Sequence record: PP359696.1
Source of the DNA: Escherichia phage Ge15
DNA length: 64,000 nt
Direction: 5' to 3' (one strand)
In this document: positions 13,598 through 60,102 of the stretch, piece after piece
Position numbering within the stretch: position 1 is the first letter of the stretch
How the letters are laid out: each line of letters begins with the position of its first letter
The notes under the pieces: generated by a model
The model's input: the letters and a program-made list of their open reading frames with translations, nothing else
What the model was told of the DNA's origin: nothing
The model's database searches: none
Made by a program: the position numbers and the translations under genes

Positions 13598-13915
13598 ATG
13601 AAAACGTATAAAGAATTTATTGCAGAATCTGCCGCAGGACAACGTGTAGAAGGCGGTTATATTTGGATTGAAGAAGTTGAGCCACCTAGTCGTACTTCTA
13701 CTGGTAAATGGAAAATTACTGTCGATGGTCCTGGCGGAAAACGCAGAACTTTAAAAGAAATTAATGGATATTATAGTGAAGCTCTTTCAGACGCGGGCAC
13801 TTATATGATGCAAATTATGATTAAAAATCCAGAAAATCGTTTTGCAGCTAGAGTTTTCCGCCGCATTGGAAATAAACTTTACGATGCATATTCTAAAAAT
13901 TTTCCTAAAGCATAA
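13598..13915 (+). CDS. internal protein (IPII-like) with capsid targeting sequence
   Basis: 105-aa ORF with N-terminus MKTYKEFIAE, the canonical T4 CTS. Confidence 0.7.
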   Translation: MKTYKEFIAESAAGQRVEGGYIWIEEVEPPSRTSTGKWKITVDGPGGKRRTLKEINGYYSEALSDAGTYMMQIMIKNPENRFAARVFRRIGNKLYDAYSKNFPKA

Positions 13916-13931
13916 AAATTAAAGGAAACAT

Positions 13932-14405
13932 ATGAAAACATATCAAGAATTTATTACTGAAGCAGCTATTAATTCTCAAATTATTGCTGAATCTTTTACT
14001 GATCTTTTGAAATTTAAAAAAGGTCAAAAAATCACTGCTGTATTGGATGATGGTACAGAAGTTGAGATGGATGTACAGGGATATAATTATGCAGTAGATG
14101 GAAAACTGTATAATAAATCTCATGCTAAATTTGATTCATTTGACGACTTTGTTAATACAGTTGAAGATGAAAAAACTCGTAGATCCATTGCAACTGGTGA
14201 TGCTAAGGTTCTTATGGCACACGGCCATGAACGCATTCGCGCTAAGCAGAATAAAATGGGCGAAGATAATTTCGCATTAGTTGGTTATCAATCTGGTAAA
14301 CAAACTTATGGTTATCAGCGTACTGCTACCATGTATAACAAAAATGGTAAAATCGCTTTCGTGAATAGTAAAGGTTCTGTTCAGTACGTTAAATCGTTCA
14401 AATAA
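13932..14405 (+). CDS. internal protein (IPIII-like) with capsid targeting sequence
   Basis: 157-aa ORF with N-terminus MKTYQEFITE; shares upstream AAAGGAAACATATG element with the preceding gene. Confidence 0.7.
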   Translation: MKTYQEFITEAAINSQIIAESFTDLLKFKKGQKITAVLDDGTEVEMDVQGYNYAVDGKLYNKSHAKFDSFDDFVNTVEDEKTRRSIATGDAKVLMAHGHERIRAKQNKMGEDNFALVGYQSGKQTYGYQRTATMYNKNGKIAFVNSKGSVQYVKSFK

Positions 14406-21546: not shown

Positions 21547-21710
21547 TGGTTTACAAGTTGGCAAGGTTATGGTATAGTAATCTTGTCAACTGCCAAGGAG
21601 AAGAGAATGAAAGTTTTGTTTGTTGTGTATGTGGTGATTCAATATAATTACCCAATGTTTACTTATAATCTGGTGAACAACATTATTGATATGATTCAGA
21701 GGAGTATGTA

Positions 21711-55639: not shown

Positions 55640-57067
55640 GTGGTAGAAATTATTCTTTCTCATCTCATATTTGATCAAGCTTATTTTTCAAAAGTTTGGC
55701 CATATATGGATTCAGAATATTTTGAAAGTGGTCCAGCTAAAAATACATTCAAATTAATTAAATCTCATGTTAATGAGTACCATAGCGTTCCATCTATTAA
55801 TGCGTTAAATGTTGCATTAGAAAATAGTTCATTTACTGAAACAGAATATTCTGGTGTAAAAACACTTATTTCAAAACTAGCCGATTCTCCGGAAGACCAT
55901 AGTTGGTTAATAAAAGAAACAGAAAAATATGTTCAGCAAAGGGCGATGTTTAACGCCACATCTAAAATAATTGAAATTCAAACTAATGCTGAGCTTCCTC
56001 CGGAAAAACGAAATAAGAAAATGCCGGATGTTGGTGCTATTCCTGACATCATGCGCCAAGCATTATCAATTTCATTTGATAGTTACGTTGGTCATGATTG
56101 GATGGATGACTACGAAGCACGTTGGCTATCTTATATGAATAAAGCTCGTAAGGTTCCATTTAGACTCAAAATTCTAAATAAAATTACTAAAGGCGGAGCT
56201 GAAACTGGAACACTGAACGTTTTAATGGCTGGTGTTAACGTTGGTAAGTCATTAGGATTGTGTTCATTGGCAGCAGATTATTTGCAGCTTGGTCATAACG
56301 TTCTTTATATCTCCATGGAAATGGCAGAAGAAGTCTGCGCTAAACGTATTGATGCTAATATGCTCGATGTTTCTCTTGACGATATTGATGATGGACATAT
56401 TTCTTACGCCGAGTATAAAGGAAAAATGGAAAAATGGCGTGAGAAATCTACTCTCGGTCGTTTAATCGTTAAACAGTATCCTACTAGTGGAGCAGACGCT
56501 AATACATTCAGGTCTCTCTTGAATGAATTGAAGCTCAAAAAGAATTTTGTTCCAACAATCATTATTGTTGACTATCTAGGTATTTGTAAATCTTGCCGCA
56601 TCAGAGTTTATTCAGAAAATAGTTACACAACTGTTAAAGCTATTGCAGAGGAATTGCGTGCTCTGGCTGTTGAAACCGAAACCGTTCTTTGGACTGCAGC
56701 ACAGGTTGGTAAGCAAGCTTGGGACTCTTCTGATGTTAACATGAGCGATATTGCAGAATCTGCCGGGCTTCCAGCAACAGCCGATTTTATGCTTGCGGTC
56801 ATTGAAACCGAGGAGCTAGCAGCTGCTGAACAACAACTAATTAAGCAAATCAAATCACGATATGGTGATAAGAATAAATGGAATAAGTTTTTGATGGGTG
56901 TTCAAAAAGGAAATCAGAAATGGGTAGAAATTGAACAAGATTCTACTCCAACTGAAGTGAGTGAAGTAGCAGGTTCACAGCAGATTCAGGCTGAACAGAA
57001 TCGCTATCAAAGAAACGAATCTGCTCGAGCCCAGTTAGATGCTTTGGCAAATGAATTAAAATTTTAG
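55640..57067 (+). CDS. 41: replicative DNA helicase gp41
   Basis: 475-aa ORF with GTG start, MVEIILSHLIFDQAYFSKVWPYMD..., Walker A GVNVGKS; recognised as T4 gp41. Confidence 0.96.
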   Translation: MVEIILSHLIFDQAYFSKVWPYMDSEYFESGPAKNTFKLIKSHVNEYHSVPSINALNVALENSSFTETEYSGVKTLISKLADSPEDHSWLIKETEKYVQQRAMFNATSKIIEIQTNAELPPEKRNKKMPDVGAIPDIMRQALSISFDSYVGHDWMDDYEARWLSYMNKARKVPFRLKILNKITKGGAETGTLNVLMAGVNVGKSLGLCSLAADYLQLGHNVLYISMEMAEEVCAKRIDANMLDVSLDDIDDGHISYAEYKGKMEKWREKSTLGRLIVKQYPTSGADANTFRSLLNELKLKKNFVPTIIIVDYLGICKSCRIRVYSENSYTTVKAIAEELRALAVETETVLWTAAQVGKQAWDSSDVNMSDIAESAGLPATADFMLAVIETEELAAAEQQLIKQIKSRYGDKNKWNKFLMGVQKGNQKWVEIEQDSTPTEVSEVAGSQQIQAEQNRYQRNESARAQLDALANELKF

Positions 57068-57096
57068 TTTACAAGCCGACAAGACTATGGTATAGT
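57067..57096 (+). promoter_or_regulatory. early promoter with stem-loop (GTTTAC ... TGGTATAGT)
   Basis: Inverted repeat ACAAGACTA/TAGTCTTGT brackets the -10. Confidence 0.55.
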
Positions 57097-57125
57097 AGTC
57101 TTGTTGGTTAAATGAGGAGATTGTT

Positions 57126-57308
57126 ATGGAATTGGTAAAGGTAGTTTTTATGGGGTGGTTTAAGAATGAAAGCATGTTTACTAAAGAAATCACAATGATG
57201 AAAGATGACGTTCAATGGGCTACTACTCAATATGCTGAAGTTAATAAAGCATTAGTTAAAGCTTTCATTGATGACAAGAAAGTGTGCGAAGTGGATTGCC
57301 GAGGATAA
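57126..57308 (+). CDS. dmd: Dmd (inhibitor of RnlA/LsoA toxins)
   Basis: 60-aa ORF immediately downstream of gene 41; T4 Dmd size and position. Confidence 0.85.
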   Translation: MELVKVVFMGWFKNESMFTKEITMMKDDVQWATTQYAEVNKALVKAFIDDKKVCEVDCRG

Positions 57309-57309
57309 T

Positions 57310-57567
57310 ATGCATATTGTTTTATTTAAACCTACTCCGTATAACGTCAGGAAAAATACTCAATTCAAAGCACTTATTGCAGATACGTGGGAATTGGTGT
57401 TAGATATTCCAGCAGAAGAAAGTCCTCCATTTGGTCGAGTGGAATTTATTAAGTTTGCTGTACGTCCTACGAAGAGGCAGATTCGTCAGTATAAAAGGTA
57501 TTTTCGTAAAATCGTTAAGCTAGAGAAACATTTTGTAACATGTGATTACGCAGAAGTTTTAAAATAA
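57310..57567 (+). CDS. gp61.4-like protein (position of the ToxN-inhibitor tifA locus, as I recall it)
   Basis: 85-aa ORF from ATG 57310 (RBS GAGGATAA) between dmd and sp. Confidence 0.5.
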   Translation: MHIVLFKPTPYNVRKNTQFKALIADTWELVLDIPAEESPPFGRVEFIKFAVRPTKRQIRQYKRYFRKIVKLEKHFVTCDYAEVLK

Positions 57568-57627
57568 CTGTTTACTTTTGTTGGAAATTGAGATACTATA
57601 TAAACATAAACTACTGAGGAGATTATC

Positions 57628-57921
57628 ATGAAAAAATTTATCTTTGCTACAATTTTTGCTTTAGCTTCTTGTGCTGCTCAGCCTGCTATGGCAGGTTATG
57701 ATAAAGATTTGTGCGAATGGTCTATGACTGCTGATCAGACTGAGGTTGAAACTCAAATTGAAGCGGATATTATGAATATTGTTGAGCGCGATCGTCCTGA
57801 AATGAAAGCTGAAGTGCAAAAACAGCTTAAGTCTGGTGGTGTAATGCAGTATAATTATGTTCTGTATTGCGATAAAAACTTTAATAACAAAAATATCATC
57901 GCTGAAGTGGTAGGTGAATAA
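57628..57921 (+). CDS. sp: spackle periplasmic protein Sp
   Basis: 97-aa ORF with signal peptide MKKFIFATIFALASCAAQPAMA; T4 Sp size and position. Confidence 0.85.
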   Translation: MKKFIFATIFALASCAAQPAMAGYDKDLCEWSMTADQTEVETQIEADIMNIVERDRPEMKAEVQKQLKSGGVMQYNYVLYCDKNFNNKNIIAEVVGE

Positions 57922-58547
57922 TGCTTTATCAAATGCACAAGTGCAAAGATACATACAAATATAAAGGTGCCCAGTGTTATATCATTAATCGTGAAAACGC
58001 GGGTCCAGGTCATTCGCATCAATCACGGTTTGTATTCGTTAAAAACAATGAAATTATAGCAGTTGCTAATTACATGCTTGTGACTAATGATGTTAATCCG
58101 GTGCCTTTTACATATTATAATCTAATGGATTTGGCGTACGATTATAATTGGTTTAATCATGACACTTTGGCTCATATCGAAGGCGTAGGATTTGACATCT
58201 CTTATTCTAGTTACTCGTTGTGTCCTATGAGCCGAGCTCATAAAGAGCCTGAATATTTTTCATTTCGTCGGCGTGTAGACTTTAAACGCAGTACAGAGTA
58301 TGTCGGTGGAATATTTGTTAAAGATAATCGAATTACTCGCATTATTTATCCTTTGGGCTGTGGTCAAAAAGATATTGATGTTGATTTAGACTTTACTGAA
58401 AACATCATTAATCATATTGCTTCTGTGTATTTTGATATTGATCACAAAATTGTGATATGTGGATATGAATTACCATCAGAAAAACAGTCTAAAGTAAATG
58501 TTTCTATTGATGACCAAATTTTTAATGCTTTTATGAATAAAGGTTAA
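57921..58547 (+). CDS. gp61.2-like protein (position of the anti-DarTG factor adfA, as I recall it)
   Basis: 208-aa ORF after sp; C-terminus SIDDQIFNAFMNKG repeated in the next gene. Confidence 0.55.
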   Translation: MLYQMHKCKDTYKYKGAQCYIINRENAGPGHSHQSRFVFVKNNEIIAVANYMLVTNDVNPVPFTYYNLMDLAYDYNWFNHDTLAHIEGVGFDISYSSYSLCPMSRAHKEPEYFSFRRRVDFKRSTEYVGGIFVKDNRITRIIYPLGCGQKDIDVDLDFTENIINHIASVYFDIDHKIVICGYELPSEKQSKVNVSIDDQIFNAFMNKG

Positions 58548-58551
58548 TATG
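58503..58551 (+). repeat. 49-bp direct repeat copy 1 (gene 3' end plus next-gene start junction)
   Basis: TCTATTGATGACCAAATTTTTAATGCTTTTATGAATA[A/G]AGGTTAATATG occurs at 58503 and again at 58861 with one mismatch. Confidence 0.85.
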
Positions 58552-58905
58552 TATAGTTCTGAATTTTCATATTTAAAAATGGAAAAAATTTCATACGATT
58601 TTATAGATGAAAAGGTTTATTACAGTTTCCATGAACCACGTTTTAATAGTGAGGTTGGGTTTATTGTAGTAAAAGACAATTTCATTTTAAAGATATATTC
58701 AGCATTAAAGGATTTTCACTACGAAAATATTAACCTAAAATTTGATAAAGAAAACGTTCGTAATTGTGCAGTAACAATTACAGGAAATAAAGGCACATGT
58801 GTTATGCTATCTGATGAAATTAATGATTTGCTAAATGATGCCGAAAAGGTTGCTATTCCATCTATTGATGACCAAATTTTTAATGCTTTTATGAATAGAG
58901 GTTAA
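58549..58905 (+). CDS. gp61.1-like hypothetical protein
   Basis: 118-aa ORF ending SIDDQIFNAFMNRG. Confidence 0.55.
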   Translation: MYSSEFSYLKMEKISYDFIDEKVYYSFHEPRFNSEVGFIVVKDNFILKIYSALKDFHYENINLKFDKENVRNCAVTITGNKGTCVMLSDEINDLLNDAEKVAIPSIDDQIFNAFMNRG

Positions 58906-58909
58906 TATG
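58861..58909 (+). repeat. 49-bp direct repeat copy 2
   Basis: Second copy of the junction repeat, 358 bp downstream of the first. Confidence 0.85.
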
Positions 58910-59071
58910 AAAACATATAAAGAATTTATTAAAGAAGATATGGTAGCTGGAGATTCAGGTGGTAATCCTGAAAATATCTCTACTGGAACAACGTCAGGTG
59001 CTGTAGTAAATAAAGGTCCTGAACAGATTCCTAAAAAGAAAAAAGAGGAATCTAAAGAAAAAGAAGAGTAA
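58907..59071 (+). CDS. mini-protein with capsid-targeting-like N-terminus
   Basis: 54-aa ORF (below track cutoff), MKTYKEFIKEDMVAG..., Lys/Glu-rich tail, immediately upstream of primase. Confidence 0.45.
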   Translation: MKTYKEFIKEDMVAGDSGGNPENISTGTTSGAVVNKGPEQIPKKKKEESKEKEE

Positions 59072-59073
59072 AA

Positions 59074-60102
59074 ATGTCATCAATACCTTGGATTGATAAT
59101 GAGTTTGCATACCGTGCATTGGCTCATTTACCTAAATTCGCACAAGTAAATAATAGTTCAACTTTTAAATTACGGTTTAGATGCCCTGTTTGTGGAGATT
59201 CAAAAACCGACCAAAATAAAGCCCGTGGATGGTATTATGGTGATAATAATGAAGGAAATATTCATTGTTATAACTGTAACTATCATGCACCAATCGGAAT
59301 ATATTTAAAGGAGTTTGAACCTGATTTATATCGTGAGTATATCTTTGAAATAAGAAAAGAAAAAGGTAAAAGTCGTCCAGTAGAAAAACCTAAAGAACTT
59401 CCTAAACAACCCGAGAAGAAAATAATTAAATCTCTTCCGTCATGTGTTAGATTAGATAAACTGACGGAAGACCATCCAATTATAAAATACATAAAAGCTC
59501 GCTGTATTCCAAAGGATAAATGGAAATATCTTTGGTTTACAACTGAATGGCCTAAATTAGTTAATAGCATAGCGCCGGGAACATATAAAAAGGAAATACC
59601 TGAGCCTCGTCTTGTTATTCCAATTTATAATGCTAATGGAAAAGCTGAGTCGTTTCAAGGACGTGCATTAAAGAAAGATGCTCCTCAAAAATATATCACC
59701 ATCAAAGCTTATCCTGAAGCAACAAAAATCTATGGAGTCGAACGGGTTAAAGATGGTGATGTATATGTTCTAGAAGGACCTATAGATTCACTTTTTATTG
59801 AAAATGGTATAGCTATTACGGGTGGTCAATTAGACCTAGAAGTTGTTCCATTTAAAGATAGACGCGTGTGGGTTTTAGATAATGAACCTCGTCACCCTGA
59901 CACTATTAAGCGAATGACTAAATTAGTTGATGCAGGAGAAAGGGTTATGTTTTGGGACAAATCTCCCTGGAAATCAAAAGATGTTAATGATATGATTAGA
60001 AAGGAAGGTGCAACCCCTGAACAAATTATGGAATATATGAAAAATAATATTGCGCAGGGGTTGATGGCTAAAATGCGGCTATCTAAATATGCTAAGATTT
60101 AA
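59074..60102 (+). CDS. 61: DNA primase gp61
   Basis: 342-aa ORF with zinc ribbon CPVCGDS...CYNC and TOPRIM region; T4 gp61 size. Confidence 0.93.
   Translation: MSSIPWIDNEFAYRALAHLPKFAQVNNSSTFKLRFRCPVCGDSKTDQNKARGWYYGDNNEGNIHCYNCNYHAPIGIYLKEFEPDLYREYIFEIRKEKGKSRPVEKPKELPKQPEKKIIKSLPSCVRLDKLTEDHPIIKYIKARCIPKDKWKYLWFTTEWPKLVNSIAPGTYKKEIPEPRLVIPIYNANGKAESFQGRALKKDAPQKYITIKAYPEATKIYGVERVKDGDVYVLEGPIDSLFIENGIAITGGQLDLEVVPFKDRRVWVLDNEPRHPDTIKRMTKLVDAGERVMFWDKSPWKSKDVNDMIRKEGATPEQIMEYMKNNIAQGLMAKMRLSKYAKI

Follow-up and report, generated by a model that had tools for sequence, protein, structure and literature searches.

Why do two neighbouring phage genes, whose products are only about 34% identical outside their last residues, end in the same 49 nucleotides (nt)? 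The question arises in Escherichia phage Ge15 (sequence record PP359696.1), of which a stretch of 64,000 nt, called the window from here on, was analysed. In the island that lies between the helicase gene 41 and the primase gene 61 of this phage, adfA (61.2), which encodes the 208-amino-acid (aa) protein AdfA, is followed by an open reading frame (ORF) of 118 aa, and the end of the first gene recurs almost letter for letter at the end of the second. In our view, it is likely that this repeat is the shared 3' end of two adjacent AdfA-family paralogues, that selection together with gene conversion has kept the two copies alike, and that the phage uses them as a crossover site.

A 49-bp direct repeat spanning two gene junctions

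A direct repeat had been reported at this place in an earlier note on the same DNA, made from the letters alone, and it is indeed there: the copies at 58503-58551 and 58861-58909 are 49 nt long, agree at 48 of 49 positions and start 358 nt apart. Each copy consists of the last 14 codons of a gene, its TAA stop codon, a single T and the start codon (ATG) of the gene that follows. When up to three mismatches are allowed, the pattern is found at just these two sites of the window, and 100 dinucleotide-preserving shuffles gave 0 matches to it. The first 42 nt encode the C-terminal peptide S-I/V-D-D-Q-I-F-N-A-F-M-N/K-K/R-G/D, referred to here as the tail; the last 14 codons of adfA in copy 1 read SIDDQIFNAFMNKG, those of the short gene in copy 2 read SIDDQIFNAFMNRG, and the coding part common to both is SIDDQIFNAFMN-K/R-G. 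The sole mismatch, an A/G difference in the penultimate codon, makes it AAA (Lys) in copy 1 and AGA (Arg) in copy 2.

The remaining part of the repeat belongs to the downstream gene, for which its last 13 nt provide a Shine-Dalgarno (SD) sequence, a spacer and the ATG. In copy 1, AAAGG stands 7 nt ahead of the ATG of the short gene, and in copy 2 AGAGG stands 7 nt ahead of the ATG of 61.1; the last bases of the repeat are therefore probably also under constraint for ribosome binding at the following cistron. The earlier note had taken the repeat for a link between a 61.2-like and a 61.1-like gene. This holds at the adfA (61.2) end, but the partner is an extra gene absent from T4 and not 61.1, which corresponds instead to the 54-aa ORF (58907-59071) that had been called a mini-protein with a capsid targeting sequence (CTS); the labels were off by one.

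Selection on the C-terminal tail

The tail ends proteins of three size classes, namely AdfA (208-216 aa), the short form (116-125 aa) and a 145-aa class of Dhakavirus/Gaprivervirus-type phages, and it was seen invariant in Tequatrovirus, Mosigvirus-like, Dhakavirus and Gaprivervirus phages and in a more distant contig. A tblastn search placed it 905 times in 708 records, all of the T-even type, and in no other phage group. The linker ahead of the tail varies by up to 12 residues, and in the AlphaFold2 (AF2) models of both AdfA and the short protein the tail appears as a detached low-confidence helix past a disordered linker.

Across the genera, the tail collects synonymous changes at about the rate of the gene body, with almost no amino-acid change. 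Between the short genes of the window and of DK-13, the synonymous rate (dS) is 1.43 and the nonsynonymous rate (dN) 0.06 in the tail, against 1.78 and 0.52 in the body; between the window and Sf21, the tail has a dS of 0.34 and a dN of 0. As the dN of the tail is very low despite its high dS, selection at the peptide level is the primary reason for its conservation.

It may be asked whether selection alone could have made the copies alike, that is, whether the same essential peptide, a ribosome-binding region and the A/T bias of codon usage would suffice, recombination having no real part. The invariance of the tail wherever it occurs and the service of the last 13 nt to the downstream gene would both fit such an account, as would TAGAGGTTAGTATG, a near-identical sequence that T2-type phages, which have no adfA tail, carry ahead of the short gene. 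The tail, moreover, offers only about 7-8 synonymous sites, and the T4-type bias toward A/T-ending codons could give part of the identity within a genome with no need of gene conversion. We nevertheless regard this account as unlikely, for the orthologous tails of other genera differ at most synonymous sites (the dS of 1.43 given above), so that these sites are free to vary, and for three further reasons taken from the comparison of genomes: paralogues share states peculiar to their lineage, T4 and the window differ by exactly one repeat unit, and allele mosaics break at the tails.

Comparison of the copies within and among genomes

The two tails of the window have 0 synonymous differences, and the orthologous tails of DK-13 differ from those of the window at 5 of about 7.8 synonymous sites. 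The states of the tail cluster by genome: the two tails of DK-13 share CAG/GCC/TTC, and in Gaprivervirus both paralogues have Lys in place of Asn and CGA in place of AGA/AAA, whereas the two copies of VR25 differ. This sharing of synonymous and lineage-specific states within a genome points to gene conversion. The repeat itself is conserved in every two-gene genome examined; this, together with a weak in-register similarity of the two proteins beyond the tail, goes against the outcome that the earlier note had named as refuting its reading, a repeat that is not conserved and proteins alike only in their final 14 residues.

T4, with a single copy of the repeat, is exactly one 358-bp unit shorter than the window, and so are eight other adfA-only loci, three of them metagenomic contigs. 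In all nine, the single copy is in the AGA state and lies directly before 61.1; the two-gene genomes have AAA on adfA and AGA on the short gene, with the exception of PinkRuby, which has AAA in both copies. A hybrid copy in the AGA state is what a crossover within the 36 identical bases upstream of the mismatch would give, and the one copy of T4 would be such a hybrid. The same boundaries are seen in allele mosaics. In SHBML-50-1, UFV11 and BCH953P2, which carry a divergent adfA allele, identity to the window climbs from 86-88% to 96-99% directly past tail 1, and in Sf21, with divergent alleles of both genes, identity of 79-82% rises to 98% directly past tail 2.

Some 539 Tequatrovirus-type records match the region. 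The short gene is present in 298 of them, 157 of which also have the 3' end of adfA; the T4-type records, in which adfA stands alone, then number roughly 241, and the T2-type records, in which the short gene does, about 141. The number of records with two tails in the tblastn search (905 - 708 = 197) matches these 157 together with about 38 Gaprivervirus-type genomes.

We propose that these arrangements probably came about as follows. The adfA gene and its probable short paralogue sit side by side in a tightly packed transcription unit, sp-adfA-short paralogue-61.1-61, where three forces would keep the two copies alike: strong purifying selection on the tail peptide, which the rates above show, a constraint on translation initiation, which the sequence suggests, and occasional gene conversion or unequal homologous recombination, to which the shared synonymous and lineage-specific states point. 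The very active recombination system of the phage would use the near-identical copies as crossover sites. From crossover at the copies would follow the 358-bp presence/absence polymorphism, the independent assortment of adfA and short-gene alleles and, with them, the three common arrangements among Tequatrovirus phages.

Apart from the small number of synonymous sites and the codon bias mentioned above, two considerations weigh against the recombination part of this proposal. The adfA-only genomes may share one deletion event, in which case the AGA state does not amount to nine independent observations, and the event itself may have been a loss from a two-gene ancestor or a gain.

The record of Yersinia phage phiD1 (L003, HE956711.1), with four repeat copies and two short genes, was considered as a natural tandem duplication and rejected as an artefact of assembly. 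Directly after a repeat copy, an Illumina TruSeq adapter masked with N, GATCGGNNGANCNNANNTNTGAACTNNAG, occupies positions 2307-2340, and the second short gene past it is spurious, a repeat-seeded misassembly in the public record. One record besides phiD1 shows two places for the short gene; among the records examined, no verified natural amplification of the unit was found.

In the short-gene-only arrangement, the junction, sp-TAA-TTAGAGGTTAGTATG, is similar to the last part of the repeat. Its origin by simple deletion at a microhomology shared by the ends of sp and adfA was considered and discarded, since such an event does not reproduce the sequence, which has one extra T. T2, treated as naturally without adfA (PMC11257639), has at 2194-2857 of its locus (L010, NC_054931.1) the short AdfA-family gene, which follows immediately on sp and is annotated under the name '61.2' with an internal ATG as its start. 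Its sp gene has a one-base insertion near the 3' end that alters the last residues, and the annotated protein is shortened to 92 aa.

The short gene as a probable one-domain paralogue of adfA

The short gene was annotated in RB32 (RB32ORF033c) as 'similar to gp61.2', and its product matches phrog_4122 with 243.6 bits. The Pfam family AdfA, with a cut-off of 27 bits, reaches 34.1 bits on it over profile positions 113-211, the C-terminal half. When the tails were removed, BLASTP still aligned residues 109-169 of AdfA with residues 21-77 of the short ORF (E = 0.013, at the protein identity of about 34% stated at the outset), and in a shuffle test of this tail-less alignment 13 of 3000 shuffles reached the observed score. 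Both AF2 models have five strands and a helix in the same order, and five successive predicted secondary-structure elements lie in register with this alignment; the similarity beyond the tail is weak but in register. The model of the short protein has a mean predicted local distance difference test (pLDDT) score of 82.8, above 90 in the core, and shows a globular core of residues 8-100 with a single beta5-alpha-beta-alpha arrangement, followed by the variable linker and the common tail. The model of AdfA (pLDDT 71.5) has a repeated strand/helix pattern. From these models AdfA looks like two tandem units and the short protein like one; the short gene is probably a paralogue of adfA with one domain instead of two. 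In a Foldseek search against viral models, the short protein retrieved only its orthologue from Gaprivervirus and three further proteins with the tail, 212, 157 and 145 aa long (E from 7e-5 to 8e-4, with the 212-aa protein at 7e-5).

Several results stand against so close a kinship. Without its 14-residue tail, the short protein has no Pfam AdfA match at E <= 10; the hhalign value, obtained with very shallow profiles (Neff, the effective number of sequences, about 1.3-2), falls from 97.7% with the tail to 13% without it, the protein then aligning to the N-terminal half of AdfA; and the Foldseek scores take in the tail. Cys73 of the short protein aligns with H165 of AdfA, the His/Arg specificity position. 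The homology of the two bodies thus draws on weak sequence signals and on predicted structure. With 118 aa and one domain, the short protein departs from the two-domain architecture of the family (about 208-216 aa), and its membership is only partial. The idea of gene fission or fusion was dropped, as shuffle tests placing the 145-aa class and the short gene on the halves of AdfA gave inconsistent answers.

The gene is nevertheless well kept. Against its orthologues it has a dN/dS of 0.2-0.33, which indicates purifying selection; Gaprivervirus and a T4-like contig of greater distance have orthologues of 42-49% identity, in each case immediately downstream of sp, with dS among these distant orthologues saturated; the length of 116-125 aa is intact across genera; and in T2-type phages and one distant contig the short gene is the sole member of the family. 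Purifying selection and orthologues in other genera mean that it is old and real, neither a fresh duplication scar nor a fragment. The family is also very narrow: its short form makes just three 50%-identity clusters among 1.84 billion representatives, the protein searches (5.8 billion and 1.84 billion entries) gave the narrow family only, with no distant cellular homologues, and IMG/VR held only a handful of relevant contigs.

These observations bear on two further explanations. The first is the cassette duplication that the earlier note had offered beside junction-mediated recombination; taken as a recent event, it would make the 118-aa gene a young partial copy of the 3' half of adfA and the repeat its undiverged scar. 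Alignment of the short protein to the C-terminal half of AdfA and the identical ending would suit it, yet a young duplicate would be similar over its full length, and the bodies have diverged as described, the orthologues in other genera stand always after sp with saturated dS, and the repeat is a selected peptide plus an initiation region. We find this explanation very improbable, and of the footprint that the earlier note had proposed only junction-mediated recombination is upheld, by the exact 358-bp indel and by the mosaics at the tails.

The second is that the 118-aa ORF is a functionless, decaying fragment and the repeat the remnant of a broken copy of adfA. The gene is dispensable, being absent from T4 and about 45% of its relatives, and in the BCH953P2 locus (L009, OZ035785.1, at about 2500-2560) it has two small frame-breaking deletions in or beside homopolymer runs, so that it may be a pseudogene there; in an unannotated assembly, deletions in such runs may equally be sequencing errors. 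The low dN/dS, the length intact across genera, the confident AF2 core, the gene's own SD and ATG, and its retention as the only family member in the T2-type records all speak otherwise, and decay is hard to credit. It is barely conceivable, finally, that the repeat is of the PeSL type, a mobile regulatory cassette in which a promoter and a stem-loop are combined and by which genes are moved around. PeSLs shuffle genes in the hyperplastic regions of T4-type phages (Arbiol et al. 2010, PMC2839356; PMC4122927), and the island has one PeSL-like element at its left edge; but the promoter/terminator scan gave no promoter-like or terminator-like site overlapping either copy of the repeat, RNA folding around the two is no better than in shuffled controls (z = +1.45 and -0.12), and the repeat is coding, so that, having no promoter, terminator or hairpin, it is not such a cassette.

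AdfA and its alleles

The AdfA of the window matches the Pfam family over its full length, residues 1-208 on profile positions 1-211, and is predicted to consist of two tandem beta5-alpha units, a linker and the C-terminal tail. AdfA binds the toxin DarT1, a DNA ADP-ribosyltransferase, and thereby neutralises it; the R164H variant of RB69 AdfA binds DarT1 in a two-hybrid assay, and T4 AdfA supplied in trans rescues RB69 on DarTG1 cells (PMC11257639). At this switch position the window has His (NIINHIAS, H165 in the numbering of the 208-aa protein), and in the RB69-like protein among our loci (L018) the residue is Arg, number 164 when the count begins at the start codon of that paper (PMC11257639). 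A further point against a simple reading of function is that T4 AdfA has the His allele, yet deletion of adfA from T4 is without phenotype on DarTG1 (PMC11257639); the natural target is therefore uncertain even for the full-length gene. The published T4 deletion (residues 65-196) leaves the tail in place.

Two adfA alleles occur in Tequatrovirus, one of 208 aa (T4 and the window) and one of 210 aa (Sf21/RB68-type). Their first 160 nt (57921-58080) are about 51% identical and the remainder 86-89%, in comparisons of the window with L005, L027, L028 and L009, which suggests, from the alignments, a further recombination boundary within the N-terminal domain.

Organization of the island

The window is a segment of a Tequatrovirus genome, in which 57000-59200 is 99.8% identical to PinkRuby and 97-98% identical to many T4-like phages. 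The gene order (Table 1) was set by reading the window sequence and its ORFs against annotated T4, and the island proteins are 96-100% identical to their T4 counterparts, among them Dmd with 60/60 residues (100%) and TifA with 82/85 (96.5%). Start and stop of tifA and dmd are separated such that tifA begins 2 nt past the dmd stop, and the two are co-operonic. The ORFs of the block exist as they had been described, and Pfam confirms Dmd, DUF7279, T4_Spackle and AdfA. The earlier note had presented the block as an anti-defence island. It is in fact the published T4 anti-toxin-antitoxin (anti-TA) island of dmd, tifA/61.4, sp and adfA/61.2, but Sp does not belong to the count: Spackle is a superinfection-exclusion protein and is not known as an anti-defence factor, and Pfam confirms only its identity. 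The counter-defence roles that the note had named for the other genes are borne out by the literature, where the region is termed the anti-TA island, Dmd inhibits RnlA, the product of gene 61.4, renamed tifA, inhibits ToxN, and AdfA (61.2) counters DarT (PMC9391042, PMC11257639).

Table 1. Features of the island and its borders in the window (positions count from the first letter of the window).
Feature	Position	Strand	Remarks
41, helicase	55640-57067	+	
PeSL-like element, early-promoter-like site in a 15-bp stem-loop	57068-57108	+	after gene 41 and ahead of dmd; the dmd-tifA unit starts here
dmd (61.5), RnlA/LsoA toxin inhibitor	57126-57308	+	Pfam Dmd PF17587, 156.9 bits; function from PMC9391042
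tifA (61.4), 85 aa, ToxN inhibitor	57310-57567	+	Pfam DUF7279, 72 bits; PMC9391042
sp (spackle), periplasmic, signal-peptide-like N-terminus	57628-57921	+	Pfam T4_Spackle, 151 bits; 99% identical to T4 Sp
adfA (61.2), 208 aa	57921-58547	+	Pfam AdfA PF23813, 452.8 bits; 96.6% identical to T4 gp61.2
Repeat copy 1	58503-58551	+	end of adfA through ATG of the short gene
Short gene, probable AdfA-family paralogue, 118 aa	58549-58905	+	phrog_4122 = RB32ORF033c; without T4 counterpart
Repeat copy 2	58861-58909	+	end of the short gene through ATG of 61.1
61.1, 54 aa	58907-59071	+	position and size of T4 61.1; 96.3% identical; phrog_1823
61, DNA primase	59074-60102	+	conserved right-hand border of the island; 98.2% identical to T4 gp61

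In other genera the content of the island is shuffled (VR25, L006, 2859-3080; L026, 2036-2614). In VR25 the short AdfA-like gene is followed by another tifA-like gene, annotated as 'similar to T4 gp61.4', and additional small ORFs surround dmd. A homing endonuclease gene lies directly after the primase gene in YenM_P8 and DK-13.

The PeSL-like element at the left edge contains the promoter-like site TTTACA-17-TATAGT (GTTTACAAG ... TATAGT), which agrees with the consensus of the promoter scan at 10/12 positions and has a TG extension; its hairpin has a folding energy of -21.8 kcal/mol (z = -7.0). A second PeSL-like copy is present at 21549-21591 (-19.0 kcal/mol, z about -6). Between the two, promoter and loop are kept, and the stem sequences have changed yet remain complementary.

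At the other side of the island, the 61.1 product begins with MKTYKEFIKE, in which Y4, F7, I8 and E10 fit the CTS pattern of T4, a decapeptide at the N-terminus in which residues 4 and 7 serve targeting and residues 8 and 10 (I/L-x-E) serve processing (PMC9026906). The first 26-27 nt of 61.1 are 96% identical to the starts of the ipII/ipIII-like ORFs at 13598-13915 and 13932-14405, which have the same residue pattern and lie downstream of a denV-like ORF. Judging from this leader, the 54-aa product may be packaged into heads and cleaved after Glu10. The protein of PHROG 2086 (156 aa) and 61.1 have their C-terminal 46 residues in common.

Relation to known systems of gene exchange

The repeat has a likeness to three known arrangements. 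As in PeSL shuffling, short conserved flanks of accessory genes would serve as recombination sites and lead to insertion, deletion and replacement among close relatives; PeSLs, however, are a non-coding promoter with a terminator hairpin; the 49-bp repeat encodes a C-terminal peptide and includes a ribosome-binding site. A second parallel is found in the CTS leaders of the T-even internal-protein (ip) genes, where a short conserved coding end of a gene sits on diverged or unrelated neighbours, is selected as a peptide and can be used as recombination homology. Such homology reportedly mediates the shuffling of ip genes, according to work by Repoila and colleagues in 1994. The difference is in place and task: the CTS is N-terminal and serves prohead targeting and gp21 cleavage (PMC9026906), and the tail of the AdfA family is C-terminal. 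The third arrangement is in the very same anti-TA island, where T4, under toxIN selection in the laboratory, underwent de novo segmental amplification of dmd-tifA through microhomologies of 2-10 bp (Srikant et al. 2022, PMC9391042). There too, copy number or content changes by recombination between short homologies, but in the window a standing repeat of 49 bp flanks one adfA-like gene, and its natural outcomes are loss or retention and allele exchange.

The 118-aa protein itself is like AdfA in its tail, its place after sp, its weak in-register similarity to residues 109-169 and the predicted order of strands and helix, and unlike it in having one domain, a Cys at the switch position, a PHROG of its own (4122) and a Pfam score that passes the threshold only through the tail. 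The short gene is thus a further, probable member of a known family, and the functional repeat on either side of it likely works as a site of recombination. A repeat-flanked gene of this family fits a hyperplastic region of the T4 type and leaves the view of phage accessory regions unchanged.

Implications for the AdfA family

The short gene would most likely encode a protein that binds a different DarT variant or another toxin, and the tail would most likely serve for docking or oligomerisation with a partner that all members of the family share. We also entertain a more tentative idea, which we hold to be improbable, namely that the tail plugs any AdfA-type domain into one and the same partner, the DNA of the tail being the connector by which toxin-binding domains are swapped, stacked or dropped by homologous recombination. 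Candidates for such a partner would be a conserved surface of DarT-like toxins and a replisome factor or one bound to single-stranded DNA at the place where DarT acts.

The invariance of the tail on a variable linker suggests a short functional peptide that lies outside the existing mutational studies of AdfA. Only a few phage inhibitors of DNA-ADP-ribosylating toxins are known, AdfA among them; its one-domain relative, which stands beside adfA or in its place in over half of the Tequatrovirus records, T2 included, is a concrete and cheap candidate for more anti-toxin activity. The repeat, which also misleads assemblers, as in the phiD1 record, offers a clean natural case in which a coding segment under selection also serves as a site of recombination, with exact indels, allele mosaics and concerted evolution. 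If the tail is a docking peptide and its DNA a connector, these phages would have a plug-and-play system of anti-toxin cassettes, and the T2-type phages, described as being without adfA, would still have a working one-domain anti-toxin.

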